Assembly: GCA_016188825.1 (NCBI GenBank)
Contig: JACPHA010000006.1
Coordinates: 10,300-74,299, forward strand
Length of the DNA stretch: 64,000 nt
Source: Candidatus Pacearchaeota archaeon
GTDB taxonomy: Archaea; Nanobdellota; Nanobdellia; Pacearchaeales; GW2011-AR1
Direction: 5' to 3'
Each line of letters opens with the position of its first letter. The first letter of the stretch is position 1. Positions 520-62,435 of the stretch are shown in pieces. The position numbers and the translations under genes are program-made. The notes under the pieces are model-generated. The model made no database searches and had not been told where the DNA came from. It saw only the letters and a program-made list of their open reading frames with translations.

Positions 520-3500
520 TTAATTGTCAGCATTACAATTATCTAAGCTATCCCCCTCTTTAATTAAAATTCCGCTGACACTAGCACTATTTGCGTCCAA
601 TTCAGGATACAATCTAATATCATTTTTCTCAAAATAATTCAAGACCTCTTTAATTTTGTCTGAATTTTCTAAAGCATTTATCTTCGCTTCTGCTTCTTTA
701 GCTAATGTAAAACAAGAGCCTTGTGAAGTAACCAAAAATTGACCTATAGAAGTAATATCTTCCCCTGAAACAACATAAATATAATGTCTAGTGGCAATTG
801 ATCCTATAAAAATATCTGTCTTTCTTCTACTCTCGTCAACAATCCAATAAACATATTTTCCTTCATTAACTGGATCCTTGTCTATATCTAAAAAGTATTC
901 TCTTGGTTTTTCTTCAATAACTGGCTTTTCTAATTGCCTATAGACTCTAAGTTGTTCTGAATTGCTCGAAATAAGGGGGTCGTCTTTTGTTCTTACAACA
1001 AAATAAAATTCAGGATCTCTCCCAGTTCCAAACAGCCCGTCTCTAACATAAATTGAATCCCACTGAACCATTGCTATTTTATCTATTCCAATCAAAGAAC
1101 TGATATTTTTCTCTAAATCATCACTACTAATAAAATCCATCTCATATATTTCAAATACAACTTCTTCTCCTATGCAAGCATTGTTTCCTTTAACACTCAA
1201 ATAAACTATTCCCTCTGAAACAGAATTGATTTTTTCAATATTACTATTAACCCACTTCGGCTCTGACAAAACACATTTTTCTTCTCTAACTCCTACACTG
1301 CTCTGCCATCCCTCAATCCTTGCTCCATCAATCTCACTAACCCTTATTCCTAAAAGTCTTCTTCCTTCAGAATTAATTTCAATCAGACCATCGCTTGTAA
1401 TAACCTTTCCAATTTCAACATAATTTCCGCCGTTATTATAAAAAACTGTTTCACCTCGAACATAATATTCGGTTGCTCTAGTTGTTCCTCCCAGTCTAAG
1501 AATAAGATTAATTCTCTTGCTTGCATCATAACTTTCCCTCAAAACAAATGAAGTTGTTGTACTTTTAACTTTCTCGGCATTCTCCCTCTCCGCATCGCTC
1601 TTGAAAAATCGCAAAGCAATCTTTTCATTAACCTGTCCTTTAATCAATAACAATCTCGCCCTATGCTCCCCAAAAACAAATTTTTCAGAAATAAATTCAA
1701 TCCTCTCCAAAATTTTCTTTCCCTCTGTTTCAACATCTTGCTTTCTGCTCAAACTTGCTAAAGCATCTTCCAAACTCTTTAATTCGGCATCTGCATTGCT
1801 CCCAAGTAAAACTCCTCCTTCTTTTTCCAAATTCGCCAATCTTGTCTTTTCTAAATTTTCAATAGTTTCATTAATCGCTCCAACATTATTTGATGTTATA
1901 GCATTACTCACGCTTTTCTCATCGAGCCAACAGCTTATTTTTTCATTGCCGCAATAACCAACTTTAACAAATCTCGCAGGATCTGTCGCACTCCCTGGAT
2001 TCTGGCTTGCGCAGATTCTAACAACTCCACGATTATAAATTTCAGGAGATATAAGTTCTTCAGCACTGCTTTGCAAATTAGGATTCAACAATGCTCCAGC
2101 ACTCGATGTTCCTCCGATGCACTCGCTTTCAGAAGTTATCTGTCTCTTATCGATTTGCTCCTTGACATAAATATCCCTCAATTGATCAATCGCAAAACTC
2201 GTTGAAACTTGTTTAAACCCGCACTCTTCCTCCTCATTAATCCTCACACAAAGTTCCTTATATCCTTCAGGCGCTGTGAAATCTTTTGTTTCAGAAGCAT
2301 ATTGCCCCAAGGGTATAAATCCCGAAGCAACCTGAACTCTCTGCGCAATTGAATAATATGAGCTCTCCGGAGGATTTCTCAAATAAACGCTAAAGTGAAC
2401 TCCAGAATCTTTGCCTGAAAAAATATGATAAAATAATTTGTATTGCGCTGTCGCCGGAACAGTTGCAGTGCTGTATGTCTTCGAATCAAACCATGCATGA
2501 AATTGCGGCGGCGAATCTGGTTCTACTAGTGCTTTAAACTTGCTAGGCGCTTTCGCAGAAATAAATGTCTTGCAAAGTTCTCCAGAAACCTCCTCAACTG
2601 CAGAGCTAACGCTCAACGGATTTGCGCCGTATCTTCCTTCAGTCCTAACTTGAAATGCCTTCAAAGAATTAACAGCATAGCTCTGCGTAAAATAATTCAT
2701 TGAGTTCTGCGCATTCTGCCATGCCGAATTCACTGTTAGATATTCCCCTCCTCCTCTTGTTCCCTGCCCGTAAGCAATCTCGACTAATTTTGGAATCAAA
2801 ACATTTACAAAAGGAGCAACTTGGCTCCAGAAAAACTCACATGTATAAACAGAATAAATCTGATCGCAAATCCCAACCATTCTTCCTGTATTTACATTCT
2901 CCTGCAAGCAATCTCTATAATTCCTCAATATAGATGCCCATCCATCAATTCCAGCTTGAACGCCGCTCAAGCAGACCGGCACAGCAATACCTTCTCTTAC
3001 ATTTGGCAAACATAACAATGTGCTTCCGACAATTCCCGACTGTTGAACATTTGCAACTGGAAACTTTCCGCCAAAATCGCAGCGCGACGACGGGCATATA
3101 ACAGGATCGCAAACATTAAACAATACATAGCAATCTCTTGGTGACATGAAATCCTGACATTGTGTTTCCGGAATACCCGCAGCAGGTTTTCCAATCTTAA
3201 ATCTCTCTCCGCCAATCATCACATAATTCTGTCCTCGTGAATATTGTCTCGCCGCCTCTTCAACTGCATTAACTGCTCTGCTAACTAAACTCCTCGCCTC
3301 GCTCTCGCTTAATCCGGGGAAAAATTCTAGTGGCTGTCCTGTATTCAAATTAATTATCTGGCACAAATCGTCTCCGTATCCAGACTGAAATTCAATTCTC
3401 TTATTCTCTCCAACATTGCACAATCTAAAACTGACAACCCTTCCGCTTGCATCAAACGCTCCAATGCCCCCAAAAGCAGGCAGTGTTTGTGTCGTCGCTG

Positions 3501-6500
3501 CATACCATCCATTCCTGACATCAAAAGGCACAACAGCAGGCATGCCTTTGTAAGGCTCGGTCTCATAATATCTAACTTCTCTGTCTTGCGAAGAAATTTC
3601 ATTATGATAACTCACTCTGTCAGTTGATTTTATATTCCCAATCCCATATCTGCTCGCAAACTCAGGAGTATTATCTAACTTGGTGTATCTTCCATCAGCT
3701 TCCTTCTTCCAAACCTCCTTGACATTATAAATTCCTGTTCTTGAATCAACCTCTTCCAAACCCAACAAATAAGCAGCGCTTTCAAATTTACTCCCTGTAT
3801 CAGAACTGCTTGCTGGCACTATCACACTTGAAACGTGTGTAACTCCAGTGCCAAAATTAGCTTGTGATTTCAAATTTCCAGATCTGACAACCTGCGCAAC
3901 CCTTGTGCTCTGCGCATTTATGCTTGCAAAAATCGGCGACGGCAATCCTTGTTTTGTCGCTTCCTGTTCTTGCGCAATAAGTTTATTTAATGCAACATTT
4001 TCATCGATTTTCTTAACCAAGTCAGTTGACTTATCATTAAGATTTTTCCCTTGCTCTGAACTCAATCCGGATTTCTGTAATTCACAATATAACATAGTTG
4101 TCCTGATAGAATTCATGCTCGCTGCTCCACTATTAACATTGTCTTCAGATAACAATTCACTGGCTTTCTTTTCATTTATAACACAATCTCCATACTGCCT
4201 TCTCGCCTCTGCAGCCAGCTCAATTTCAGCAGCATCAGTATTAATGCTCTTCCCAAAAATTCCATTGCTTATGGTGTGTTTTTCCTGAATTGGCTTTATC
4301 TTCTCATTAATTTTGTTTATCGCTGTCTCTGTTTTTGAAACATCAGATTCAATCTCGCTCGCTTTGTCCAAATAGCAAGCATTCAAATTAACATAATCTC
4401 CTTTCGCAACCATGTCGGCGCAAATATTTTTCCATCCGCTCTTTCCATTCATAACTTCCTGCCTTGCTATTGACTTGCCACTCAAACCAGAAAGAAAGCT
4501 CTTAAATGTCAAAGCGGCCGCTGTCCCAAAACACGCCTCTTTCAAATGCGTTACTGTTTCTCCCAAATTCTTAGAAATTTTCTCCCAATCCTTTATCGTA
4601 CCATTCAACTTTTCTATTTTCTCCAACGCCTTGTCCGGAGTTAATTTAATTCTCCTTTTCTCAATTCCAACTCCGACAGTCAAATTAGTAACTGTCTGCG
4701 TCCCCTCTGCTCCAGGAATCAATCTTATCTTCGCAAACTTCTCAACATTTGTCTTATGCAATTTAACTGTCAAGCCGCAAATCTCTTTTGCCTGCTCGTC
4801 TATTCGCAACTCAACGCTTGATTTTCTCATCGTAAAACCTCCAGTCTCATTTGCGCAATAATATCCCAATCTTGCTCTTTCCACATCTAAATCACCCAAC
4901 TCAAACTTTGCCCTTGTCCCTCCCCTTATAACTTCAGTCGCATTCCTCTCTCCTAATTTGATTTTCTCGACCCTATCTTCAATAAATATCTCAGCGCTCT
5001 GCTCTTTCAAAGGCTTACTCAAACTAACAAGCCTTATCGCCCTTGTCCTGTCATCAAACTCAACAACTGTTCCGGCAAAACTCGAATCAATCTCAGACAA
5101 AGCATTCAACTCATCTAAATAACCGTTTGTATTTCCCTCTGGATATTTCTCTGTCAATTTGTTAATCAATCTCGCTTGCTCATTCTCCATTCCAAACTCT
5201 CTCGCTAATTCCTTGGCTTTCTCCAAAGCAATCTCCCCATAATATCTGCCTTCTCCCAAACCGCCTTCTTTTGTATCAGGGTAATCATCAGCAACTTGCT
5301 CATAACTCTCAATCGCTTTTCTGTAATATTCTCTTGTCTTAGCAGAAACATTCTTTGCGGCAAAACTGCTTATTCTAAAATCAGGATAGTTTTTCTTATT
5401 TTCCCCATATTCTTTCAAAGAGCTCCACAACAAAACAAACCATTTTTTATTTTCTTCACTGTCTTTGCCAACGACAGATTGATCAACATCTCCATCACTC
5501 GAAACAATTATCTTCCCTTCTTTCAATAATTGCCCATTTGTATTCAAAACATAAGTTCCTCTTTTACCCGAGTCTTTCAACTCGCTTAAATCAATTCTAT
5601 AATCTCCATTGCTTTCTTTTGTTGGCTCTTTTAAAACACCTTCAGCATAAAATATTCCAAACTTTCCCCCTTTTCTATTCAATCCTAAAACAAATTCTTT
5701 TCCTTGACAGCTTCCAATGACTTCCCCGCTCTGCCCATCGTCTTCAATATTAATGCTTCTTATTGTGCATCTATCATCCATAAACCTAGCGCCCTGATAA
5801 ACATCAAAAATATCTGTTCCATCGTCGCTTGAAACTTCTATCTTTGCCTTTTTTTCAGCAGAAATAAATCCGTCATAAGCTATTTCCAAACTCGCTCTGC
5901 AATACATTCCAGGCAATATTATCTTCCTTGATGTTTGTCCGCGATCAACTCTAACCGTGCTAACCTTTTTATCGCCATAATAAACAGACACAAATGCTAT
6001 GTTGCTGTCCGCCTCTTCTAATCTAACAAAATATCTTCCCCTCCAAAAACTATTTTTTACTTTTTCTCTCTGCCATTCCTCTTCTGTCATCGGCGTTAAA
6101 ATAAACTCTGCCCTGCCAACCCCCAGAGAATTTCCTGCATTATACTCTATCTGCGCGCTCAGAGTCACATTTATATTTTCAGGCAGCTTGCTTTCATCTG
6201 GCTGTCTTTTCAAAATCAAAACAACATAACCAATATTATTAACAAGCGGGCTTCCTAAAAGTTTGTCATGTGTCCTCAAGGCTGCTTTCGCAGGATGAAA
6301 GCCATAGTCAACAATTCCCTCTGGTTTTTCTCCAATGAATCTCATATTTCTTATGCTCTTTATATCAACTAATGGATTTATCTTGTAAGCATCGATCTGG
6401 CAAAACACCGGAACATTTTGCTCTGCTAACAAATCACTTCTAACAATCACCGGCTGGCAACCTGCAGGAGCAATGCTCAACAGCAAATCCTGTCTTGCTT

Positions 6501-6723
6501 CGCATGTTTCTCTGTCTCCTAAAATGGGCCAATAATTTTTAATATCCCCGCCGCTATAATAAGTCTCAAAACTAGGTCTGTTTTGGTATGTTGCAGAAAA
6601 ACCTCCTTGAGAGCTTCCACTAAAACTTCTGTAAACAGCAGCATTCGCAAAACCAGCCTCAAATATTGTTCCAGCAAGAACTGCTAAAACAAAAAAAGAA
6701 ACTATTTTTTTCTCAAATATCAT
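520..6723 (-). CDS. giant secreted/surface protein (2067 aa), function unknown
   Basis: Uninterrupted 2067-codon ORF. N-terminal signal-like segment KKIVSFFVLAVLAGTIFEAGFANA. Cys-rich central block. ATGA start/stop overlap with the upstream gene. No catalytic motif recognised. Confidence 0.85.
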   Translation of the reverse strand: MIFEKKIVSFFVLAVLAGTIFEAGFANAAVYRSFSGSSQGGFSATYQNRPSFETYYSGGDIKNYWPILGDRETCEARQDLLLSIAPAGCQPVIVRSDLLAEQNVPVFCQIDAYKINPLVDIKSIRNMRFIGEKPEGIVDYGFHPAKAALRTHDKLLGSPLVNNIGYVVLILKRQPDESKLPENINVTLSAQIEYNAGNSLGVGRAEFILTPMTEEEWQREKVKNSFWRGRYFVRLEEADSNIAFVSVYYGDKKVSTVRVDRGQTSRKIILPGMYCRASLEIAYDGFISAEKKAKIEVSSDDGTDIFDVYQGARFMDDRCTIRSINIEDDGQSGEVIGSCQGKEFVLGLNRKGGKFGIFYAEGVLKEPTKESNGDYRIDLSELKDSGKRGTYVLNTNGQLLKEGKIIVSSDGDVDQSVVGKDSEENKKWFVLLWSSLKEYGENKKNYPDFRISSFAAKNVSAKTREYYRKAIESYEQVADDYPDTKEGGLGEGRYYGEIALEKAKELAREFGMENEQARLINKLTEKYPEGNTNGYLDELNALSEIDSSFAGTVVEFDDRTRAIRLVSLSKPLKEQSAEIFIEDRVEKIKLGERNATEVIRGGTRAKFELGDLDVERARLGYYCANETGGFTMRKSSVELRIDEQAKEICGLTVKLHKTNVEKFAKIRLIPGAEGTQTVTNLTVGVGIEKRRIKLTPDKALEKIEKLNGTIKDWEKISKNLGETVTHLKEACFGTAAALTFKSFLSGLSGKSIARQEVMNGKSGWKNICADMVAKGDYVNLNACYLDKASEIESDVSKTETAINKINEKIKPIQEKHTISNGIFGKSINTDAAEIELAAEARRQYGDCVINEKKASELLSEDNVNSGAASMNSIRTTMLYCELQKSGLSSEQGKNLNDKSTDLVKKIDENVALNKLIAQEQEATKQGLPSPIFASINAQSTRVAQVVRSGNLKSQANFGTGVTHVSSVIVPASSSDTGSKFESAAYLLGLEEVDSRTGIYNVKEVWKKEADGRYTKLDNTPEFASRYGIGNIKSTDRVSYHNEISSQDREVRYYETEPYKGMPAVVPFDVRNGWYAATTQTLPAFGGIGAFDASGRVVSFRLCNVGENKRIEFQSGYGDDLCQIINLNTGQPLEFFPGLSESEARSLVSRAVNAVEEAARQYSRGQNYVMIGGERFKIGKPAAGIPETQCQDFMSPRDCYVLFNVCDPVICPSSRCDFGGKFPVANVQQSGIVGSTLLCLPNVREGIAVPVCLSGVQAGIDGWASILRNYRDCLQENVNTGRMVGICDQIYSVYTCEFFWSQVAPFVNVLIPKLVEIAYGQGTRGGGEYLTVNSAWQNAQNSMNYFTQSYAVNSLKAFQVRTEGRYGANPLSVSSAVEEVSGELCKTFISAKAPSKFKALVEPDSPPQFHAWFDSKTYSTATVPATAQYKLFYHIFSGKDSGVHFSVYLRNPPESSYYSIAQRVQVASGFIPLGQYASETKDFTAPEGYKELCVRINEEEECGFKQVSTSFAIDQLRDIYVKEQIDKRQITSESECIGGTSSAGALLNPNLQSSAEELISPEIYNRGVVRICASQNPGSATDPARFVKVGYCGNEKISCWLDEKSVSNAITSNNVGAINETIENLEKTRLANLEKEGGVLLGSNADAELKSLEDALASLSRKQDVETEGKKILERIEFISEKFVFGEHRARLLLIKGQVNEKIALRFFKSDAERENAEKVKSTTTSFVLRESYDASKRINLILRLGGTTRATEYYVRGETVFYNNGGNYVEIGKVITSDGLIEINSEGRRLLGIRVSEIDGARIEGWQSSVGVREEKCVLSEPKWVNSNIEKINSVSEGIVYLSVKGNNACIGEEVVFEIYEMDFISSDDLEKNISSLIGIDKIAMVQWDSIYVRDGLFGTGRDPEFYFVVRTKDDPLISSNSEQLRVYRQLEKPVIEEKPREYFLDIDKDPVNEGKYVYWIVDESRRKTDIFIGSIATRHYIYVVSGEDITSIGQFLVTSQGSCFTLAKEAEAKINALENSDKIKEVLNYFEKNDIRLYPELDANSASVSGILIKEGDSLDNCNADN

Positions 6724-8612
6724 GTTCCCTCCGAAAACTCCAAATTTACTTTGCTCTCTTCAAACAGCTCAAAATTCCTCTGCAATTCCTCAATTGACCT
6801 CGGCGCAGGCAAAGCCCCAACTTCAATTATCATCTTTCCTTTCTCCAGCTGATTGTCCAAAATATAGCTCTGTAATTGTCCTCCGCCAATTAGCTCCCCG
6901 TCTATCTTTGTCTCTGGCACATTAATATCAAAGCACTTTTCTTTAGTTCCTCCAAACAACCCTAACAATCCGGATTTTGGAACATCAACACACTCTGTCT
7001 TTGTGCTTGCAGGAATCACAACACTTGAATTACCGTAAACATAAACCTTAACCTCATAACTTCCCTCGCTCAATTTTATTTTATCTTGCTCCGGCAGTGC
7101 TATTGCGTTTGTCTTGCCATCATCCCGCACAAAAGTCGCAATGGCTGTTCCTTTCAATCGCTGCCCGCCAACCTTTAATTCAACATCCACTTCTCTTTCT
7201 CTTTCCATTATAATCTCTTTAAACCTCTCTGAATTGCTCGAGAACAACTCTCTCTTTTCTGCGTACCCTTCTGCTCTTGCATGCAAATAACCATTAACAC
7301 AGGCCGGCGCAACTCCAAGAAATCTTCCGTCTACACTCTCTCCAAGCCTGCATCTCTGATCAAAACACTCATAACTAATGTTCGCATCAACTTCATTCAA
7401 ATTAACATCATAAAGATTAACCTCTATTTCCTGTGTCTTAAACTCGCATAAATCAAATTCTTCTTGCGCAATTTCTTCTGATATTACTCTGTTTGCAATG
7501 CTTTCTCTCGGCACATTATTATCTATCACAACAACAATCGGAAACTGGAAAATTTCTTCATTGTCATAAATCTGTATTAAAACTGGAAAACTGACATCAT
7601 AAACAAAATGATAAGGAATATAGCAGAATCCCATTACTCCTGCTCCCTGCTGATTTCCTATAGGCTCTGAAATCATTATTTCGTCGTCAACACCCTCTCC
7701 TTCTATCTCAATCTTAGCAGGCCAATTTTTTAAATACATAAAATTCACTGCCTCATCTGTTGATTTATCTAAAATAAAATAATTGCTGTTGTTTCCTCTC
7801 GCCCTATAATAATCTCCTCCTAATTTTATAGCCAAAATATTTTCTTCCAATCCTTCTCTCAAGCCGCTGATTACCTCTTGTGTTGCCCAAATCTTCGGCC
7901 CGCACTGTATCTCAACACCATCGACCGGCGCATACAAATACAAAACATCGGTAGCATACTGCTCCAAAAATGCCTCTTTCTTTTCCTTTTCATAAATTTC
8001 TAAAGCAATAGAATAAAACTTTCCCAGCTTGCTATCAACCGCAACGTTATGAGCAACTTTTCTTCCGCTCTTCCCCGCTTTCCTAACTGACATCTCGCTA
8101 TTTACTTCAACATTAACTCTATTGTTTTCAATATCAACTCTTGCCCTTGGCTCGCTCAAACTAATTTCAAACCCTTGAGCATAAAAATTTTCAAAATCAC
8201 AAACAACAAGGCCTTCCTCAACATAATCCTCAATCTCTTTTTCAATCTCCTCTTTGTTTGGAACTTGCTCTTTAATCAAACTATTTCCTGCAGCATAATA
8301 CCAATAAGGAACAGGAAACCCTAAAAAGTTCAAATGCGAGGAAAATGGAGCATAGTCGCTCCCTGGCACATAAGCAGGAACATCAACATATCCTCCCTGT
8401 GTTTCAGCCAGTTGTATCGCTCCTCTTGTCTCTTCTTCTATGCAACCCTGATAATACTCAAAAACCTTAACCAACTCCTGCGGTATCCCTCCTGCTCCAA
8501 GAACTTGCCCGCGCACAACAAAATAAGCAATAATTCCACCAACTATAATGACCGCAATTATAACAAAGATAGTAACTTGTCCTTTTTTATCAAACTTTTT
8601 TTCTTCAAGCAT
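6720..8612 (-). CDS. large protein (630 aa) with prepilin-type (class III) signal
   Basis: N-terminus MLEEKKFDKKGQVTIFVIIAVIIVGGIIAYFVV matches the K-K-G/A then Q plus hydrophobic helix pattern of the pilin-like genes at 53-59 kb. Translationally coupled to the giant gene. Confidence 0.75.
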   Translation of the reverse strand: MLEEKKFDKKGQVTIFVIIAVIIVGGIIAYFVVRGQVLGAGGIPQELVKVFEYYQGCIEEETRGAIQLAETQGGYVDVPAYVPGSDYAPFSSHLNFLGFPVPYWYYAAGNSLIKEQVPNKEEIEKEIEDYVEEGLVVCDFENFYAQGFEISLSEPRARVDIENNRVNVEVNSEMSVRKAGKSGRKVAHNVAVDSKLGKFYSIALEIYEKEKKEAFLEQYATDVLYLYAPVDGVEIQCGPKIWATQEVISGLREGLEENILAIKLGGDYYRARGNNSNYFILDKSTDEAVNFMYLKNWPAKIEIEGEGVDDEIMISEPIGNQQGAGVMGFCYIPYHFVYDVSFPVLIQIYDNEEIFQFPIVVVIDNNVPRESIANRVISEEIAQEEFDLCEFKTQEIEVNLYDVNLNEVDANISYECFDQRCRLGESVDGRFLGVAPACVNGYLHARAEGYAEKRELFSSNSERFKEIIMEREREVDVELKVGGQRLKGTAIATFVRDDGKTNAIALPEQDKIKLSEGSYEVKVYVYGNSSVVIPASTKTECVDVPKSGLLGLFGGTKEKCFDINVPETKIDGELIGGGQLQSYILDNQLEKGKMIIEVGALPAPRSIEELQRNFELFEESKVNLEFSEGT

Positions 8613-9118: not shown

Positions 9119-9189
9119 TGGCCTCAGGCAGAATCGAACTGCCGCTCCATCCACGTCAAGGACGTGTTCTACCACTAGACTATAAGGCC
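9119..9189 (-). tRNA. tRNA-Val (anticodon GAC)
   Basis: Reverse complement GGCCTTATAGTCTAGTGGTAGAACACGTCCTTGACGTGGATGGAGCGGCAGTTCGATTCTGCCTGAGGCCA folds as a cloverleaf. 7-bp acceptor stem, anticodon stem CGTCC/GGATG with loop TTGACGT, T arm GGCAG-TTCGATT-CTGCC. One D-stem mismatch. CCA not encoded. Confidence 0.85.
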
Positions 9190-10175: not shown

Positions 10176-10877
10176 TTATGCCCTGGCTAATAAAGATGTG
10201 CCTTGAATATTATCTTCATATTTTATTTCCGCATCTCCTATCAATTCTAAGTCTAGTATTCCTGCACTTTCTACAAAACAACAAGATTCATTTCTCCTAG
10301 GCATCATCAAGTAAATAGCTGACACATTGCCAAACTCATCCTGCATTCCATCGAAGATACCAATAAACTCCTCTAGACAAAAATCTTCTTTTATTTTTAA
10401 AAGTGAGCTAATAGTGAATATGTCATTATATCCTTCTATAATAGCATTGGTTGATGTTCTTAGATCACTAGTTAGCTGTAACGAACTTCCTATTTGGCCA
10501 GTTATTTGTCTATAGCCTAAGTCTATCATTCTAAATGGTCTTAAATTCCGATTCGTCCACTCCAGCAATGAAAAAGTTCCGGAAGCTAAATTGTCTTCAT
10601 AAGGATAAATTAGTTTTCCACTGATCCTATATTCTCCAGAAATACGTGGGTGATTTGGGCCTTCAGGAAAATTTAAAGTAAAGCCCATATCTCTAACTAT
10701 ATTAATTAAATTATTCATAGAAGGCATATTCTTCGTAAAATCTTCAGGAATGCCTAATGTTCTAGATAGAGCGTCAAACAAACCATTCTGACAATTACAT
10801 CCTAAAAAATTTAAAGAAATCAAGCTAGAAAGACCACCCACAATAGCTTCTCTTCTTGTTATATAATTATTTTTCAT
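10176..10877 (-). CDS. putative secreted lipoprotein, unknown function
   Basis: N-terminus TRREAIVGGLSSLISLNFLGC has a twin-arginine-like motif followed by a lipobox-like Cys. Confidence 0.5.
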   Translation of the reverse strand: MKNNYITRREAIVGGLSSLISLNFLGCNCQNGLFDALSRTLGIPEDFTKNMPSMNNLINIVRDMGFTLNFPEGPNHPRISGEYRISGKLIYPYEDNLASGTFSLLEWTNRNLRPFRMIDLGYRQITGQIGSSLQLTSDLRTSTNAIIEGYNDIFTISSLLKIKEDFCLEEFIGIFDGMQDEFGNVSAIYLMMPRRNESCCFVESAGILDLELIGDAEIKYEDNIQGTSLLARA

Positions 10878-10909: not shown

Positions 10910-13252
10910 TTATTTATTTAACCTATTTAGATTATCTCTTGCATTTTGATGAGTCGAATCTATTTGCAATGCTCTTTCATAAGTTTTTTTCGCATCTTGT
11001 ATCAATCCTTGTTTTTCAAAAGCAACGCCAAGATTATTGTAAGCATCACAATATCCTGAATCGATTCTAATAGCTTCTCTAAACTCCCTTATTGCTTCAT
11101 CATAGTTTCTTATTCCTAAAAGCTCATTTCCAAGACAGTAATGATATGTTTTTTCCAGAGGATTTATGGAAACGGCTTTTCTATATTCTTCTATAGATTT
11201 AGAATGATTATTTATTATAAGATAACAATATCCCAATTGGCAATGAATGTCTGCTCTCCTTTCATTATTCAAAGCAACTTTTTCTAAGTGTGAGATTGCT
11301 TTTCCATATTCTTCTTTTAAATAAAAACAATTTCCTAAGTATAAATGAGAGTTTGTGAAATTCCTATAATTCTGCGGAGCAGATTCAATAATTGATTCTA
11401 GGTTTTTTATTGCGCTATCGTAATTCTTTTTTTCATATTCAGACACTGCTTCATTATATAGTTTGTCAAAATCCTTGGGTTTAGTTTCTTTTTCCGGATT
11501 TATTCTTTCTGCTTTTCCACTTGTAGCTTGTTGCCCGTTTTGATTTATATTTTCAATTTCTCTAATCCTGCTCCAATACTGAAAGGCTCTTTCTTGATTT
11601 TTTCTTTCGTTATATTCTAAAGCTCCCAAACTATACAAAGCATCTACCTGATTAGGATTCATCTCCAAGATTTTTTTAAATTGTTTTTCTGCATAATCTG
11701 TCCATACGCCACCTTTCTTTAGAAAAACATTTCCAAGATTTAAGTTTGCTTGAACAGCAAGACTATAATCGGGTTCTTGACGTAAAGAATCTTCTAAATA
11801 TGCTATGGCTCTATCTAAATCGCCCAGCTTAAAATATAAAACACCAATATTATGAAAAAGAATTGGAGAATCTTTATGATATTTTATTTCATCGTCATAG
11901 ATTTGCAGGGCTTCTTTAAAATTGCCTTGTTGCTCTGCCTTTGTTGCTTTGTTGATAATATTCTCCAAATCTGTCCCATCAACAACATAACTATTTTTTG
12001 GTAATGGAAAGATGAGCTCCAAATCCTTCGGGTTTGTTTCATCCATCTCTTTTCTTATATATTCTATTTTCCCATCCAAAGATAATTTTGCAAAATAATC
12101 TATTTTGCTCCAGTCGGCATTTTTTGGAATTACATAATAAGTACCTTCTTTATAAGGCAAGCTTATTTTTGGATTAGAATATTTAACTACCAAGTCTAAT
12201 GATTTAGAAAATTTCTTATTTTTATCTACAATATCCCCACTTTCGTCAAACTCATAAATGCCTCTAGGCAAATATTTTTTAACTATGGCGTCAGTTGGTA
12301 ATTGTATTGTCTCTACCAAATACTCGTCTTCCACAATTTTCTTTGCAAGTTTTGTAGTTATATTTCCATTTTCATAATTAACATAAACAAAATCATTAGT
12401 TGAAGTAAAATTAGGAATCTCTTCTGCAAAAAGATTAATGCTTCCAAAGTCTAAATTAATAAATCTCGGTTCTATAGGAGGATGAACACTAACAATTTCT
12501 CCTATTTCTGAAAGCACATTATTTTCACACCAAATAAATTTTATTTTATTATTATCATCGACAAATTTAACATATTTTCCTTCTCCGATGGGTATTACTG
12601 TGCCAGCAATAAATTCTATTTTTTCTTTTTCTTTTTTATATGCGCTAAAGGCTATTTCTTGTCCAGTTTTATTAAGAGAGTCTCTAAGATATTTACCTAA
12701 CTCTTCATTTGAATATGCAAGAATTATTGGAGAACCAATAATATAATTCTCTTGTATTGTTTTTGGAGGTTTTTGTAATTGTTTATTTTTATCAGTAACG
12801 TTAATTGTGGTATTTCCAATTTCAAAGTCATTAAGAAACCATTTTCCTGTATATTTCCCAGGAGTTAACCGTCCAGGGTAGTAAGTAAGCCAAGTAAACC
12901 AATCATTGTTTGGAATTGTGCCATGGTTTTCTATTCTGATTAATCTTTCTTTACCATCAAATCTTTCTTTACCATCATATAACCTTAAATATAGTTCACT
13001 TCCAATTTGATTAACAATTCTGCTCATTAAAGTAACATATTCTCCTGTAGAAAAATTATTTTTTTTACCAATTATCTCATTAGGAAAGTCAACTAATCCA
13101 TCTTTATTTAAATCACTCCAGTAATTTGCCGCAAAAAATTCGTTTTGAGCATTATTATGTTGAGAGGGAGCATAATATCCTGTTTCAACTAGACAGCCAG
13201 ATGATAAGGAAAGCAATGCTGTTAGGCCTGATTTAACAATTTTTCTGAGCAT
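10910..13252 (-). CDS. modular lipoprotein with C-terminal TPR repeats
   Basis: Likely start MLRKIVKSGLTALLSLSSGC (lipobox). N-terminal domain is paralogous to 13260-14165 and the middle domain to 14155-14988. The C-terminal half has many TPR-like repeats (AxxYxxKALxxxP type). Confidence 0.75.
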   Translation of the reverse strand: MLRKIVKSGLTALLSLSSGCLVETGYYAPSQHNNAQNEFFAANYWSDLNKDGLVDFPNEIIGKKNNFSTGEYVTLMSRIVNQIGSELYLRLYDGKERFDGKERLIRIENHGTIPNNDWFTWLTYYPGRLTPGKYTGKWFLNDFEIGNTTINVTDKNKQLQKPPKTIQENYIIGSPIILAYSNEELGKYLRDSLNKTGQEIAFSAYKKEKEKIEFIAGTVIPIGEGKYVKFVDDNNKIKFIWCENNVLSEIGEIVSVHPPIEPRFINLDFGSINLFAEEIPNFTSTNDFVYVNYENGNITTKLAKKIVEDEYLVETIQLPTDAIVKKYLPRGIYEFDESGDIVDKNKKFSKSLDLVVKYSNPKISLPYKEGTYYVIPKNADWSKIDYFAKLSLDGKIEYIRKEMDETNPKDLELIFPLPKNSYVVDGTDLENIINKATKAEQQGNFKEALQIYDDEIKYHKDSPILFHNIGVLYFKLGDLDRAIAYLEDSLRQEPDYSLAVQANLNLGNVFLKKGGVWTDYAEKQFKKILEMNPNQVDALYSLGALEYNERKNQERAFQYWSRIREIENINQNGQQATSGKAERINPEKETKPKDFDKLYNEAVSEYEKKNYDSAIKNLESIIESAPQNYRNFTNSHLYLGNCFYLKEEYGKAISHLEKVALNNERRADIHCQLGYCYLIINNHSKSIEEYRKAVSINPLEKTYHYCLGNELLGIRNYDEAIREFREAIRIDSGYCDAYNNLGVAFEKQGLIQDAKKTYERALQIDSTHQNARDNLNRLNK

Positions 13253-13259
13253 TTTGGGA

Positions 13260-14165
13260 TTAAGGAATATTATCAATAACACTAATACGTGTAGTTCCAA
13301 TTACTTTCCAATTGATAGACCATGCTGCTCCATAGTGACCAGGATTAAGTCTTCCCGGTGCATACTGATGCCATGCAAACCAATCATTAGATTGAATTTT
13401 TCCATAGTTCAATTCTTCGATTTCTTCGATTTTTCTTTTATTATTTTGAGTTTTTTCATACGGTCTAAACTCATATAGCCTAAGTTCTAATGGATTTCCT
13501 GTTTGATTAAAAATTCTACACATTAACATAATGTTTTCGTTTTTAGAGAATGTTGTTTTTTGACCTGTTATCTCACCTGGATAATCAACCCTTTTGTTGC
13601 CATTTAAATCACTCCAGTAATTTGCCGCAAAAAATTCGTTTTGGTCGCGATCATTTCGTCGAGTAGAATAAACTATAGATTCCTTTTTTTGTTCTTCTTT
13701 GTTAAAAACATTGATTTTTATTTCTCCAATATGTCTCTCATTAAGAAACCATTTTCCTGTATATTCGCCTGAAGCAAGCCACCCAGGAGCATAATAACTA
13801 AATAAATAATAATTATCATCAATTACTCGATGTCTCTTTCCTTGTTCGATAAGAATTCCCTTATCATCATACAACCTAAAAGCCAAACCATTTCCAATAC
13901 AATTATCAATGTTTGATGCAAATCTAATGTGTTCATTTGTAAAAAAATTATTTTTTATTCCTATTAGCTCATTAGGGATCTTAATATTTCCATCGCCATT
14001 TAAATCACCATAGTCATTACATGCAGAAAACTTGTATGTACAATCTTGATTTTGTTTTTTATTCTCTAAAATTTGAATGGGTTTATGATAATCATAAGGA
14101 ACCGTGCAAGCTGACGAAAACGAAACCAGCGCCGCCAAGCCCATTTTAATTATTTTATTTTTCAT
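13260..14165 (-). CDS. lipoprotein with two copies of the EFFAANYWSDLN...TGKWFLN domain
   Basis: Signal MKNKIIKMGLAALVSFSSAC. Two tandem repeats are homologous to the N-terminal domain of the TPR protein (EFFAANYWSDLNG... and FSACNDYGDLNGDG...). Confidence 0.75.
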   Translation of the reverse strand: MKNKIIKMGLAALVSFSSACTVPYDYHKPIQILENKKQNQDCTYKFSACNDYGDLNGDGNIKIPNELIGIKNNFFTNEHIRFASNIDNCIGNGLAFRLYDDKGILIEQGKRHRVIDDNYYLFSYYAPGWLASGEYTGKWFLNERHIGEIKINVFNKEEQKKESIVYSTRRNDRDQNEFFAANYWSDLNGNKRVDYPGEITGQKTTFSKNENIMLMCRIFNQTGNPLELRLYEFRPYEKTQNNKRKIEEIEELNYGKIQSNDWFAWHQYAPGRLNPGHYGAAWSINWKVIGTTRISVIDNIP

Positions 14166-16712: not shown

Positions 16713-16805
16713 ATATATTCTAAAATATTTTAATATATTAAGTAAAGTTTATATATTCTAAAATATTTTAATATATTAAGTAAAGTTTATATATTCTAAA
16801 ATATT
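16713..16805. repeat. 38-bp tandem direct repeat (about 2.4 copies) in a divergent promoter region
   Basis: ATATATTCTAAAATATTTTAATATATTAAGTAAAGTTT occurs at 16713-16750 and 16751-16788, with a partial third copy. Each copy carries a TTTATATA TATA-box-like word. Confidence 0.9.
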
Positions 16806-22929: not shown

Positions 22930-23072
22930 CTATAGAGGACTTTGAATAACCCCTATTTTTTGCTTTCTTTCAAAGACTTCAACTTCCAAGTTGAATGTAT
23001 CAAAGAACTTGTTTTTTGAGTCCTTCTTAGAGAGTTTTGAAAAACCCTAAAAACTTTCAAAACTCTCTATAG
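22930..23072 (+). repeat. 143-nt MITE-like structured element, copy 1
   Basis: Near-identical to 52724-52865. 8-bp terminal inverted repeat CTATAGAG...CTCTATAG. Internal palindrome TTCAACTTccAAGTTGAA. 14-bp stem hairpin at 23029-23068. Confidence 0.85.
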
Positions 23073-24367: not shown

Positions 24368-26230
24368 ATGCAAAAAAGAGGATTGTCATTTTTTATAGTA
24401 ATAATTATTTTGCTTTCTAGTTTTGTAGTTTATGCTCAGGAAGAAGATAATTCAAATAGCCTAAATGATGGCTCCGAAGAACCAGAGATAATAGAAGATG
24501 ATTCTGCAGAGAATAACGAAGAAACCTCTCTCGAAGAACTAGAAAAAGAATTCTCTGATGAAGAGCTTGAAATAAGTCCTGGGATAAGTCCAGACAGTAG
24601 TTTTTATTTTATAGATGAATTCTTCAACAGGTTCGGGAGTTCTATTGGAAACAGAGAGGAAAAAATTGCAGAAACTAAGGCAATGATACAAAGTGGTAAA
24701 ATTGAGGAAGCCAGGGAGGCTTTAGAAGGATACAAAAAATATGCTGATAAGCTTGAAAAAGAAGTTTCGCCAGAAGAAAGAAAAGAAGCCAGAAAAAGCG
24801 CTGCCGCAATCCACAGGGCATTAAAGGAAATCGAATCTGAAATCCCGGAAGATGAAAGAGAAGAATTTATAGATGATATTCGAAAAAAGGAAAACGCAAT
24901 TCTTACCGCTGCAGAAATTGCAAATAAAATAAAAGAATTGTGTCAAACATTATCAAAATTAGATCCCACGGAGTTTTACAGGGTCTGCAAAAGTGAAGAC
25001 AATTCCCCAAGATGGCACAAAGATTTATTCAATGACTTGACAGAAGAACAAGAAAAAGAAGCCAGATTATTTTTTGAGATAATGATGCAATGTTTTGAAA
25101 CGGGGGGAAAAGAATGCAGATGTGAAGAAATTCCACACAAGGCATTTTCAAACGAATGCTCTGTGGTTGCCCCGCTTACTGCAGCATGCGAAGAAGGAGA
25201 AGAAACTGCATGCGCGCAAATGGAAGAGCAAACAGAAGATATAGAAAACTTGTTGGAAGATGCTCCTCATTTGCAAAGAGTTCTCGAAGAAATTGAAGAA
25301 AGATTTTCAGAAGCACAGTTTGACAACCACGTCCCGCCAGAGTGCAGGAGAGAAAATGCAAAAACAGCAAAAGAATGCATGTTAGTAATGTTTAGAGCAC
25401 ATGCTCCTGAAGAATGTATTGAAGCTCTGGAAAGCGGAGAAATTGATTTTACTAATGAAAGAGAAGCTCGCATGGCATGCGAAGAAATAATGTTTAAGGA
25501 AAATGCTCCTGAAGAATGTATTGAAGCCGGAATAAAAAACCCAAAAGAATGTGGAGTATACATGTTTAAATTAAATGCGCCGGAAGAATGTATTGAAGCA
25601 GGCCTAACAGGCGAGCACCAAAGCGATCATAGAAAATGCGAAACTATTATGAGAGAAAAAGGCGGTCCTGCAGGTCGCGGACCACCGGCATTAGGAATAA
25701 GATGTAAAAGTATTGAAGACCCTGAAGAAAGATTAAAGTGTTATGATTCTGCCTTAGAAGGAACAGGGTCATTGCCTTTTGGACATGGATTTCCTCCTGA
25801 ATGCGAAGAAAAAGGAGCAGCAACTCCTGAAGAATGCGAAAGAGTCATGAGGGAAATAAGAGAAAGTGATTTTGAAAGAAGAGACGAAAATTTTGACAGA
25901 GAGGGCCCTTCTGGCAACTGGCCTGAACAATGCCAAAGAGCTAACGCATTCACCGAAGAATCTTGCAGGAAAGTAATGGAAGAAGGCCAGCAGCAAAGAG
26001 AGGAATTCAATGAACCAACTCAACCAACTGAAAACCCTTCTCCTAGTGAAACCACAGAATCAACAACTACAACAGAAACTCAAAGAACAGAAGAAAGCTC
26101 AGCTGAAACTAGCACAAGTTCAGAATCATCAGGCTCTGTTACAGGCACCGGAGGCGCAATCACAATCACTAGTGGGGTTATCAGAGAAAACAGATTTCTC
26201 AAATATTACTTTAGATTATTCAGGTATTAA
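24368..26230 (+). CDS. secreted acidic protein with Cys-pair (PEEC) repeats and Thr/Ser-rich tail
   Basis: Signal LSFFIVIIILLSSFVVYA. At least six units such as HAPEECIEAL, NAPEECIEAG (x2), PPECRREN...KECM and TPEECERVM. C-terminal TTESTTTTETQ region. Confidence 0.75.
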   Translation: MQKRGLSFFIVIIILLSSFVVYAQEEDNSNSLNDGSEEPEIIEDDSAENNEETSLEELEKEFSDEELEISPGISPDSSFYFIDEFFNRFGSSIGNREEKIAETKAMIQSGKIEEAREALEGYKKYADKLEKEVSPEERKEARKSAAAIHRALKEIESEIPEDEREEFIDDIRKKENAILTAAEIANKIKELCQTLSKLDPTEFYRVCKSEDNSPRWHKDLFNDLTEEQEKEARLFFEIMMQCFETGGKECRCEEIPHKAFSNECSVVAPLTAACEEGEETACAQMEEQTEDIENLLEDAPHLQRVLEEIEERFSEAQFDNHVPPECRRENAKTAKECMLVMFRAHAPEECIEALESGEIDFTNEREARMACEEIMFKENAPEECIEAGIKNPKECGVYMFKLNAPEECIEAGLTGEHQSDHRKCETIMREKGGPAGRGPPALGIRCKSIEDPEERLKCYDSALEGTGSLPFGHGFPPECEEKGAATPEECERVMREIRESDFERRDENFDREGPSGNWPEQCQRANAFTEESCRKVMEEGQQQREEFNEPTQPTENPSPSETTESTTTTETQRTEESSAETSTSSESSGSVTGTGGAITITSGVIRENRFLKYYFRLFRY

Positions 26231-26310
26231 ATTGTCTAACTTATTTTTTCCATTCTCTCTAAAAGTTCGCTATTTGCTTTTTCTCACAGTTGCCTTAAAA
26301 AATCCGCGCT

Positions 26311-26325
26311 CGCGGCTTAGCCGCG
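26311..26325 (-). other. GC-rich hairpin spanning the stop codon of 26317-27057
   Basis: CGCGGC-tta-GCCGCG with the TAA in the loop, followed on the coding strand by a T-run. A positional equivalent lies at 61656-61670. Confidence 0.6.
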
Positions 26326-27057
26326 AATCAGAACTACCCGACCATCACCGTCCGAGTAAGCGAGATCCCCGCCGTACGAAAGGACGTAGAGACTACTGTC
26401 CAAGCACAACCACGAAAGGCCTTCATCTTGCGTATATAATCTTCTTTCTCCACCTTCATCAAAAATTGGCAATGCTCTGTCATCCGTCTTAGAAAATCTT
26501 TTATTATTATTTTTACCAATTAAAACCGGAGCTTCAAAAAGTTCAACATCATTTCTTAACTGGAAAGCTAGACCATATTGGTTATCAGCGTTCGTTAAAT
26601 CAAATCCTGTCAAAGGAATCATTATATGATTTTTAGTAGAGGGTTCAATGCCGCGAGCTCTTACCTGTTTAACAAGATCTTGCGCTAGAGGAGTATTACG
26701 ATCATAAGAACATTTGTCAGTTCTTACAACAAGAGAGGCATCTTCATATTGTCTTCTCAACGGCAAACTGCTTGATTCAAGAATTCTGCCTAAGTCTGCA
26801 GGTGTTGCAGTTCTTATTCCCATAGGCCTAAGAATCTGGTTTGCCAAGACTACTGCGAAAGGATTTGAGCCAGCTACAACATTTCCATCATAAGCCAGAA
26901 CCTTAATGTTACTATTACCTTTGTAATCAACATCAGCTAGACCGTTAAATTCCTCTAAGAATGCTTCTGCATCAGCTCCTTCAATAAAGCTAGCAATGAT
27001 ATTTGGAACTCTCCAATTAAAGTTTCCTTTAAATTTTGACTTTGTTTTTGTTTCCAT
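26317..27057 (-). CDS. conserved hypothetical protein with GC-rich variable-region-like C-terminus
   Basis: 246-aa ORF. Aligns end to end with 61641-62435. C-terminal ...SWLCLDSSLYVLSYGGDLAYSDGDGRVVLIRG uses locally GC-rich codons. Confidence 0.8.
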   Translation of the reverse strand: METKTKSKFKGNFNWRVPNIIASFIEGADAEAFLEEFNGLADVDYKGNSNIKVLAYDGNVVAGSNPFAVVLANQILRPMGIRTATPADLGRILESSSLPLRRQYEDASLVVRTDKCSYDRNTPLAQDLVKQVRARGIEPSTKNHIMIPLTGFDLTNADNQYGLAFQLRNDVELFEAPVLIGKNNNKRFSKTDDRALPIFDEGGERRLYTQDEGLSWLCLDSSLYVLSYGGDLAYSDGDGRVVLIRG

Positions 27058-29830: not shown

Positions 29831-30064
29831 ATGTTTCTGGGCATGCCTATTTTAATTATTGTCCTTAGCATAAAATATTTCTCGCAAAATAAAAATGGGA
29901 AAGAATACCTAAAAAGTTTAGTGATTCCACTTTCATATTTATTAATAATGACTCCTGTTGGTTTTACAATTGAATCAAAAATAATTGGTGGTCCTATTTT
30001 TTTAAATGGTCTTCAAACAGCCCTTTCAATAATATCAGAGGCAATATTCCACAACCTTTATTAA
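29831..30064 (+). CDS. small membrane protein
   Basis: 77 aa with two or three hydrophobic segments. No motif. Confidence 0.4.
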   Translation: MFLGMPILIIVLSIKYFSQNKNGKEYLKSLVIPLSYLLIMTPVGFTIESKIIGGPIFLNGLQTALSIISEAIFHNLY

Positions 30065-30068
30065 TTAT

Positions 30069-30166
30069 AATCAAAAAGTCCTTGTGTGTGTTTGGACTTT
30101 TGGACACCAAGAATTCTGAAAATTAAATTCTTGGGTGTGCTCAAGAATTGGAAATTCTTGACATAA
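30069..30166 (+). repeat. interspersed palindromic element, short-form full copy
   Basis: Hairpins AAAAGTCC/GGACTTTT, CCAAGAATT/AATTCTTGG and TCAAGAATT/AATTCTTGA, then CAT. 63 nt (30071-30133) match 52941-53003 with one mismatch. Confidence 0.85.
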
Positions 30167-52723: not shown

Positions 52724-52865
52724 CTATAGAGGACTTTGAATAACCCCTGTTTCTTTGCTTTTTTCAAAGACTTCAACTTCCAAGTTGAATGTATCAAAGA
52801 ACTTGTTTTTTGAGTCCTTCTTAGAGGGTTTTGAAAGTTTTTAGGGTTTTTCAAAACCTTCTATT
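52724..52865 (+). repeat. 143-nt MITE-like structured element, copy 2
   Basis: Matches 22930-23072. In the hairpin at 52823-52862 the loop GTTTTTAGGGTT is the exact reverse complement of the copy-1 loop. Confidence 0.85.
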
Positions 52866-52938
52866 ATCACTAGAATTCTGGAAAAATTTTATATCAATTA
52901 CCAGAATTCACGATAAATCACCGAACACTTTATTAATA

Positions 52939-53008
52939 AATCAAAAAGTCCTTGTGTGTGTTTGGACTTTTGGACACCAAGAATTCTGACAATTAAATTC
53001 TTGACATA
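52939..53008 (+). repeat. interspersed palindromic element, short form with internal 27-nt deletion
   Basis: Identical to 30071-30133 except one base. Then jumps to ACAT, as if deleted between the AAATTCTTG direct repeats present in the 30-kb copy. Confidence 0.85.
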
Positions 53009-54217: not shown

Positions 54218-54282
54218 CGCAATCGTTATATGGTAATTGCGTTGATTATAGCCAAGGACATTAATATTTCCTCGTTTTGCCT

Positions 54283-54398
54283 TTGACTACATCAAGATTA
54301 ATGGCTCTTTAATCTTGAGTGTGCTCAAGAACTATGTTCTTGACATCAAGGGAAAGACGCACACAATTGGTAAAAAACTTGCGTCTTTCACTATAGAT
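54283..54398 (+). repeat. interspersed palindromic element, long form, copy 2
   Basis: Matches 401-518. Hairpins TCAAGATTAA/TTAATCTTGA, TCAAGAAC/GTTCTTGA and GAAAGACGC/GCGTCTTTC. Confidence 0.85.
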
Positions 54399-54489
54399 TA
54401 TAATTTTTAGCAATTACCTATTAGAGATTTGCAACAAAATTGTGCTAATTAATGCAAATCTCTATAAAGATAAATTTCCTATTTTCTAA

Positions 54490-61640: not shown

Positions 61641-62435
61641 TTATTTTTTCGGCACGCCGAATTCGTCGGCAGTCAAAACTACCCGACCATCATCGTACGA
61701 GTCAGCGAGATTCCCGCTGCTCGAATAGACGTCGAGGTACCTGCCCAAGTACAACCTCGAAACTCTCGAATCTCCTGTCCAGTTAGTAAATATCCCTTCT
61801 CCTTTTTTGCTCAAACTATCATCAGGCAAACCATTCTCATCAAAACCATTGAATTTGCGCTCCCTATACTTCAGAAGCAATTTATCAGAATAAACAACTT
61901 TAAACTTGTTTCCAACTAAAGGAACAAACATAAAACCATATCCTCCACTTTACAAATCATCGGTAGGAATAACTCTTAAATTTGTTACTAAAGCCGGTGT
62001 TTTTTCCAAGCGAGTAACATCAACTCTTTCTCCTAAATATTCAAAAATATTCTTCTCTCTTTCGTCGTATATTTTAGCTGTTGATCCTCTCAAAACTATT
62101 CCTAAAGTATCGACATAATGTTTTCTTTTTATCATTTCGGCAATTCTCATGTCTTGCAAATCAGAAGGAAGCAAAGTTCTCACTCCATATTGAGAAACGA
62201 TTTGATTTATCAAAGCAGAATCTTGCAAAGTTGAGCCAACCAATTCATTTCCTTGAAGCTCTAATTTAAAGTATAGATTGTTTCCAAATTGTTCTCTTGC
62301 TCTTCGGTAATCTCTGTAAACAACACTTACTAAATCTCCAGTTATTTTGTCTGGAAGCTGAACTGTGTTTCCCGCTTCTTTCGGTAAGAAAACAAAATCT
62401 GCAAGGGTTTTTTCTCTGCCTTGATTAATAGCCAT
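61641..62435 (-). pseudogene. paralog of 26317-27057 interrupted by one in-frame TAA
   Basis: ORFs 61950-62435 and 61641-61931 are in the same frame, 6 sense codons apart (IPTDDL*SGGYGFMFVPL). Together they are colinear with the 246-aa paralog. Confidence 0.65.

Follow-up and report, generated by a model that had tools for sequence, protein, structure and literature searches.

Two genes on one strand of an archaeal contig, lying 35 kb apart and coding for distantly related proteins, end in blocks of DNA that are largely the same in both and that differ by nothing other than amino acid-changing substitutions; this raises the question of what kind of process could have written them. The genes belong to a Candidatus Pacearchaeota archaeon (GenBank assembly GCA_016188825.1, contig JACPHA010000006.1), of which positions 10,300 to 74,299 were analysed; this whole stretch of 64,000 nucleotides is referred to as the window. 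The original prediction, made from the letters alone, had read the two blocks as targets of a diversity-generating retroelement (DGR). In the DGR model, a template repeat (TR) is transcribed, a reverse transcriptase (RT) copies the transcript with misincorporation opposite adenines, and the resulting cDNA replaces the variable region (VR) of a target gene. Both blocks are very probably DGR variable regions, carried by orphan targets that have neither a TR nor an RT in the window; that they would be served in trans by a DGR located elsewhere and that they have recently been stranded appear about equally probable.

Two Blocks Without Synonymous Differences

The blocks lie at 26332–26421 and 61677–61766, both on the minus strand. 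A codon-by-codon comparison anchored on GGT CGG finds 70 of 90 nucleotides identical over 30 codons, 15 of them unchanged and 15 differing nonsynonymously, with no synonymous difference; the 20 differing bases are split 11/6/3 over codon positions 1, 2 and 3, and every figure given earlier for the pair was reproduced. The first synonymous difference (CTG/TTG) comes one codon past the 3′ end of the block. Six AAY codons can be inferred within it which, with variation mostly at positions 1 and 2, are features of a DGR target, and one of the two copies carries an A at 11 of the 20 differing sites.

The block similarity is real and far beyond chance. The pair was recovered independently by a repeat search (as D5, 26317–26417 and 61662–61762, 77% identity), which found no third copy in the 64-kb window; a degenerate 39-nt block pattern allowing up to three mismatches matches the window at these two places only, with 0 matches expected in 100 shuffles. 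All 15 positions of the block core that share an amino acid also share the codon (P ~10^-7.7 under independent codon choice), and the remark that several of these codons are rare holds for the window, where TCG, CTC and CGG make up 6.6%, 5.2% and 3.0% of their synonymous sets. The block core has a G+C content of 55–56%, against 34% for the window. Similarity elsewhere in the two genes is weak, as had been claimed: the proteins are 30% identical (blastp E = 4e-11), and codon-aligned DNA identity is 79% inside the block versus 45% outside it.

A Family of Candidate DGR Targets in DPANN Archaea

A first search with the protein of the gene at the left-hand block (gene 1) returned 66 homologs. Most of these are metagenome proteins without names, and the handful with names come from Nanoarchaeota metagenome-assembled genomes; an exhaustive search with a family profile extended this to 1009 representatives of 50%-identity clusters at E <= 1e-3, of which 725 at E <= 1e-10. 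Neither gene 1 nor the gene at the right-hand block (gene 2) has a Pfam or NCBIfam match, FGE-sulfatase and DUF1566 included. The family alignment has an invariant scaffold, GLSRLxLxxxLxLxSxxxxLxxSxxxGRVVxVS, the x positions of which are hypervariable across the family.

Family members occur in 22 related DPANN loci from Pacearchaeota, Woesearchaeota and Nanoarchaeota assemblies. In eight of these (L003, L005, L010, L014, L019, L020, L021 and L023), the homologous block is followed downstream by a TR and then an RT; the TR is an asparagine-rich copy of the block some 300–450 nt downstream of the gene (for example LSRLNLNRNLNLNSNWNNLDNSNSNGRI), and the RT open reading frame (ORF), detected by tblastn, comes directly after. 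The L003 RT matches Pfam RVT_1 (E = 5.6e-17) and carries the motifs LGNLTSQ (LGNLTSQFFANIYLNELD) and YVDD. In ungapped alignments, the mismatches between TR and VR fall at TR adenines in 14 of 14 cases in L003, 15 of 15 and 16 of 16 in L010, and 17 of 18 in L023. As these mismatches fall (almost) only at template adenines, the family can be regarded, on the strength of its sequences, as a bona fide DGR target, with the block as its VR. The single TR of L010 serves a tandem pair of targets, which represent the two subfamilies to which the genes of the window belong; there is thus a precedent for a single TR serving both.

Two cis elements accompany the variable regions of this family. At the 3′ end, where the sequence known as the initiation of mutagenic homing (IMH) is found, the aligned relatives have a VR that ends in a GG form (mostly GGTCGGGTAG) and a TR that ends in an AA form (mostly GGTCGAATAG), the latter termed IMH*. 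Further on, most related VRs have a GC stem of 5–6 bp that lies about 19 nt beyond GGTCGGG and closes a three-base loop, usually GAA, GGA, AAA or GCA. Members that lack the GG-type IMH (L007, L008, L012 and L013) also lack the hairpin, and the cis elements of the window are therefore informative rather than inherited by default.

Some related loci have peculiarities of their own. In L005 (~10500–10560), L014 (~10990–11040) and L020 (~2930–2975), the TR holds an extra 21–25 nt (TCGAAATCT...AGACGA...) that follow the last variable codons and precede IMH*; this segment is missing from the cognate VR, and if cDNA simply replaced the VR, one would not expect the template to be the longer of the two. 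The VRs of the two family genes of L021 (7726–7857 and 10571–10702) are identical, and L024 has two family genes (7767–7898 and 10596–10727) in which the flanks of the VR core are almost identical and the cores differ also at scaffold codons; no TR or RT lies within 10 kb in L024.

The Variable Regions of the Window

The features of the two genes of the window, all on the minus strand, are as follows.

26317–27057, minus: gene 1, a 246-aa ORF of subfamily 1 of the DGR variable-protein family (ORF list, homolog and profile searches).
26347–26421, minus: mutagenised part of the candidate variable region of gene 1 (VR1), encoding GLSWLCLDSSLYVLSYGGDLAYSDG; codon comparison, its variable sites falling on A columns of homologous TRs.
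26332–26346, minus: IMH-like 3′ end of VR1, GATGGTCGGGTAGTT (DGRVV), with the VR-type GG where homologous TRs have AA.
26311–26325, minus: GC hairpin after VR1, CGCGGC-TAA-GCCGCG, with an 8-bp stem in context (-15.7 kcal/mol).
26236–26316, minus: decayed remnant (81 nt) of the C-terminal helical tail of gene 1, reading through as AASADFLRQL, stop, EKANSELLERMEKIS, stop.
61641–62435, minus: gene 2, a paralog of subfamily 2, 264 codons with an in-frame TAA (ORFs of 161 and 96 aa; comparison with orthologs).
61950–61952, minus: the in-frame TAA of gene 2, at a position that is K or T in the intact orthologs P0332 and P0333.
61692–61760, minus: mutagenised part of the candidate variable region of gene 2 (VR2), encoding SRLYLGRYLDVYSSSGNLADSYD; codon comparison and TR alignment.
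61677–61691, minus: IMH-like 3′ end of VR2, GATGGTCGGGTAGTT, the same as that of VR1 (pattern match).
61656–61670, minus: GC hairpin after VR2, GCCGA-CGAAT-TCGGC, which contains GAA and lies inside the coding region (ADEFG).

VR1 and VR2 were aligned to five anchored homologous TRs, and a column was counted as an adenine column if at least three of the five TRs have A there. Among the core columns that vary between VR1 and VR2, 14 of 17 are adenine columns, against 14 of the 64 invariant ones (Fisher p = 7.7e-6). The three columns left over are the third position in each of two neighbouring codons (AGT AGT versus AGG TAC) and one GGT/GAT pair; these could also be adenine in the TR of the source genome itself, and no difference between VR1 and VR2 requires an explanation other than a template adenine. 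Both VRs end in GGTCGGGTAGTT, the GGTCGGGTAG form of the VR-type IMH, where the TRs of relatives end in GGTCGAATAGCC, and both are followed by a GC hairpin at the usual offset of the family (~19 nt). Together with the TR and RT found in eight of the 22 related loci, these sites and elements bear out the adenine-directed reading first proposed for the blocks. As every scaffold base is shared between genes whose products are 30% identical, both VRs seem to have been overwritten from one and the same TR.

In VR1, variable codons are interleaved with invariant scaffold codons, and in both genes the VR lies 4–15 codons upstream of the stop, at the 3′ end of the gene as in DGR targets. Relatives have a helical tail of roughly 50 aa after the VR, which in gene 1 persists only as a remnant; the latter can still be aligned to the DNA that codes for the tail in L003 and L033 (AGAPDFSAQF...KSELSRRF) and has stops and indels. 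The gene 1 stop is itself the loop of the hairpin (TAA, 26317–26319), which reads GGC TAA GCC as against GGC GAA GCC (G-E-A) in relatives.

Gene 2 had been taken for a paralog, and it is indeed related to gene 1, but it isn't a single intact ORF. Its best matches are the intact ENA proteins P0332 and P0333, to which it is 60% identical; its identity to the second target gene of the L010 cassette is 36.5% by tblastn and 39% in a multiple alignment. The same split ORF is found in Logan contigs from the runs SRR12113384, -430, -431 and -433, three of these contigs being 100% identical to the window and the fourth, L027, having one mismatch whose position was not located; the TAA is therefore not an assembly error, and gene 2 is probably either split or a pseudogene of recent origin. 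Logan contigs of several runs begin or stop inside its N-terminal coding part (window ~62350–62386), and no repeat of the window accounts for this break.

By analogy with the relatives, in which the transcript of the TR would be copied by the adjacent DGR-type RT, misincorporating opposite adenines, and the cDNA would replace the VR of the target, the following scheme can be proposed. The VR would be targeted through its 3′-terminal, GC-rich IMH and the GC hairpin some 19 nt beyond. In the window, two paralogs 35 kb apart, whose VRs differ only at possible template adenines, would both have been rewritten from one TR; the donor DGR would either lie elsewhere in the roughly 1-Mb genome, acting in trans, or have recently decayed.

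Predicted Fold of the Variable Protein

AlphaFold2, run with a 62-sequence alignment, predicts gene 1 to encode a single domain (pLDDT 91.8, pTM 0.88) in which the elements beta(21–24), alpha(28–44), a further beta and alpha(66–79) are followed later in the chain by a beta-sheet whose last strand, 242–245, is RVVL. This modelled order would be compatible with a C-type lectin (CLec)-like topology, the last strand, encoded by the IMH, pairing with the first as it does in AvpA (PMC5006420). The CLec fold suggested for the C-terminal part is compatible with this confident model and its order of elements but stays putative, the lectin matches returned by Foldseek being weak and non-significant. In the PDB they are the domains of human CD23, MBP-C and SP-A, at E = 2–4, with a target-normalised TM of 0.44 for CD23 and MBP-C; in BFVD the best match has E = 0.027, and tail collar fibers are among the proteins listed, together with a single FGE-like one. 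The AvpA structure, 5IOO, is not among the top 50 Foldseek matches. Homology to AvpA by sequence was rejected, as the family profile, searched against all PDB sequences, matches no chain at E <= 10.

Missing Machinery and Other Points Against a DGR

Several findings weigh against a DGR as the author of the two blocks. Its machinery is missing from the window, as had been noted at the outset and is confirmed: an adenine-tolerant sliding comparison finds just the other VR, and inspection of IMH*-type sites finds none with VR-like sequence upstream, so no TR is found in the 64 kb; nor is an RT, a scan for Y/F-x-DD returning unrelated long ORFs in no RT-like context and tblastn with the L003 RT reaching a best E of 1.3. 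The window represents ~6% of a typical DPANN genome. Beyond it, the TR of the source genome would be expected to fit the scaffold CTC-NNC-GTC-NNT-TCG...GGTCGAATAG, and TR-compatible patterns found no match in viral (IMG/VR) and metagenome contigs, collections from which the VRs of the window are absent as well. These VRs were also not found in GTDB genomes and JGI metagenome contigs, with patterns that end in the VR-type GGTCGGGT and cannot match a TR, which ends in GGTCGAAT. As its own VRs are absent from them, the genome, metagenome and viral collections do not hold the source genome.

The contigs that do hold it count on the same side. Nine Logan contigs were obtained from six runs (SRR12113384, -420, -424, -430, -431 and -433), six of them, from five runs, spanning a VR; these are consensus contigs only, 100% identical to the window save for the L027 mismatch, and they cross both VRs without a break and with no consensus-level VR diversity over the five runs. 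To this must be added that the loop of hairpin 1 is TAA and not the GRA reported as highly constrained (PMC4372165), that the model of gene 1 has no significant CLec match in the PDB by Foldseek (none at E <= 0.001, best E 0.18), and that the cassette of the closest relative looks impaired. The closest relative of gene 1, P0002, is 73–77% identical to it depending on the alignment and sits in a target-TR-RT cassette (L033 1412–2152; also L034, L035 and L036) whose RT ORF ends at 233–246 aa, just before YxDD, and whose VR lacks one codon relative to its TR. This cassette looks like a decaying DGR, yet the scaffold of its VR is otherwise still perfect; a perfect scaffold can therefore outlast the death of the RT. 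In L034, a gene for an IS200/Y1 transposase is found immediately upstream.

Logan contigs that carry the proteins of the window ends gave no extension on the left; on the right they add ~1.4 kb, with an OB-fold protein and RadA. Homologs of the UBA73 RT amounted to 6459 matches; among the candidates considered, P0068 (85% identical) was rejected as the RT of this population, as it has the UBA73-type TR end and not the scaffold of the window. UBA73-type TRs were likewise rejected as donors: their scaffold (TTG, TCC, TGG, CTT GAG) differs from that of the window (GTC, TCG, NGC, CTC GCT) at non-adenine sites.

Live Target, Fossil or No Retroelement

The explanation that competes best, and to which a little under an even chance can be given, is that a DGR did write the blocks but that its RT and TR have since been lost or inactivated, leaving VRs that are frozen at their last homing event and decaying together with their genes. 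Lineage-specific nonsense mutations in both genes, which also count against a working target (TAA for K or T in gene 2; GAA to TAA in gene 1, with a degraded tail), are what such fossils would display, as is the distance of 26 kb or more over which neither VR has a TR or RT, compared with 300–450 nt in relatives. The invariance of the VR sequences in contigs of several runs fits as well, and so does P0002, whose RT is truncated without YxDD and whose VR scaffold is perfect apart from the missing codon; nanoarchaeal "partial DGRs" without an RT have been reported and interpreted as possible fossils (PMC4372165). On the other side, VR1 and VR2 display no unambiguous scaffold difference over ~67 sites, including ~22 synonymous third positions, and each still has an intact IMH and hairpin stem, elements that clearly decayed family members have lost; moreover, just 64 kb of the genome were inspected, and DPANN genomes often carry several DGRs (PMC4372165). 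The intact scaffold does not settle the matter between live and fossil, as the lineage of P0002 keeps a perfect one after the death of its RT. Of the view that the blocks are remote targets, the part that stands is that of orphan VRs without a local TR or RT; that they are live is not established, in view of the nonsense mutations in both genes and the truncated RT of a relative.

Could the pair have arisen with no retroelement at all, by recent gene conversion between the C-termini of the paralogs followed by diversifying selection on surface residues? This would account for highly similar blocks in paralogs that have diverged elsewhere, and for the nonsynonymous excess, but it is very improbable. 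It leaves unexplained why the differing sites match the TR adenine columns of homologous cassettes, why one copy has A at 11 of the 20 differing sites, and why the VR-specific IMH and the hairpin are kept in both copies; the absence of any synonymous change beside 15 nonsynonymous ones is extreme for selection alone, and the block of this family is DGR-templated in eight related loci. An overlapping nucleic-acid element (an RNA gene, an attachment site or an antisense ORF) that would hold the shared bases constant, suggested by the rare codons and the G+C content of the block (55% versus 34%), is scarcely credible, given that Rfam finds nothing at the block (the only tRNA of the window being at 9119–9189), that the alternation of invariant and variable bases tracks the coding frame and the TR adenines and not a structural RNA, and that the antisense ORF at 26010–26492 is not conserved at the second locus; an RNA gene and an attachment site beneath the block were rejected, and so was the antisense ORF, as an artefact of the GC-rich block.

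Comparison with Known Systems

DGRs are established in DPANN archaea (PMC4372165, PMC5006420, PMC5758913), and nanoarchaea can carry four or more of them (PMC4372165). The DGRs of the nanoarchaeon DUSEL4 are the nearest described parallel (PMC4372165): they share with the present family a DPANN host, the target-TR-RT order seen in relatives, a VR near the C-terminus followed by a short helical tail, an IMH and IMH* that differ as GG and AA (TGGGGT/TGGAAT in DUSEL4, TCGGGT/TCGAAT in the present family), a GC hairpin within the target gene whose loop is three bases long (GRA in DUSEL4), and orphan targets that have a VR and cis elements without an RT. The targets of DUSEL4 fall into four groups. 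Unlike in DUSEL4, the loop of hairpin 1 in the window is a stop codon, TAA, and two orphan targets of different subfamilies, 35 kb apart, carry one scaffold. Such RT-less partial DGRs were described in nanoarchaea in 2015 and read as fossils or remote targets (Paul et al. 2015, PMC4372165).

AvpA (PDB 5IOO; Handa et al. 2016, PMC5006420) resembles gene 1 in being a single domain of ~250 aa without a signal peptide, with a VR of ~25–30 residues placed just before the last, invariant beta-strand encoded by the IMH (RFxGV there, GRVVxV here) and with a disordered or helical tail after the VR whose DNA holds the hairpin; its motifs GxxVVVYAH and HPxxxPFxG are not evident in the gene 1 family. The Mtd protein of Bordetella phage BPP-1 and Treponema TvpA likewise have a C-terminal VR, AAY codons, a last strand encoded by the IMH and a downstream hairpin or cruciform. 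The VR of the gene 1 family differs from theirs in being about half as long and in its beta-strand-like alternation (L.L...L.L.S....L..S...GRVV), and the family has no FGE-sulfatase or DUF1566 match in Pfam. In the remote bacterial DGR targets of Treponema denticola and Legionella (Wu et al. 2018, PMC5758913), several target genes at scattered positions share a single TR and are recognised by A-to-N-only differences from the TR and by conserved 3′ elements; their TR and RT are known from the same genome, whereas here they were not found, and remote targeting is inferred.

Other Repeats in the Window

The window also contains interspersed intergenic repeats that are 83–96% identical (22930–23069 and 52724–52863; 30056–30133 and 52928–53003; 361–536 and 54242–54417), one of which contains a 42-nt palindrome; no Rfam match was found for them. 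As Logan contigs end at four of these repeats (489, 23003, 30095 and 54369), more copies elsewhere in the genome are suggested. At the intergenic positions 16713–16788, an AT-rich unit of 38 nt occurs twice in tandem without a mismatch. Between 10910 and 14174, large ORFs of the minus strand (796 and 304 aa) contain direct repeats that are 99 nt and 42 nt long (12779–13787, 13106–14039) and may encode repeat-domain surface proteins; a neighbouring ORF of 2067 aa (520–6723) has no Pfam family on record in a contig look-up.

Significance

The locus is a clean further example of the RT-less targets already described, and is incremental to the nanoarchaeal work of 2015–2017. Large surveys that require an RT adjacent to the VR miss orphan or remote targets by design (PMC8144416), and the footprint of a DGR (synonymous changes absent, differences placed at codon positions 1 and 2, codon pairs of the NNC/NNT type) is recognisable from raw sequence alone, even if the retroelement itself is not part of the window. 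The analysis also ties to DGRs a large unnamed DPANN family of ~1000 clusters at 50% identity, without a Pfam, NCBIfam or PDB relative. A bolder proposal, which must be considered unlikely, is that this family constitutes a widespread DPANN variable-protein scaffold distinct from the solved CLec classes, being either a new CLec subclass or a non-CLec fold, and that one TR located elsewhere is still rewriting both dispersed paralogs in trans, one of them already a pseudogene. If this were true, homing would depend only on cis elements in the DNA and not on the coding integrity of the target. The locus provides a concrete test case as to whether the DGRs of DPANN archaea act in trans or leave fossils.

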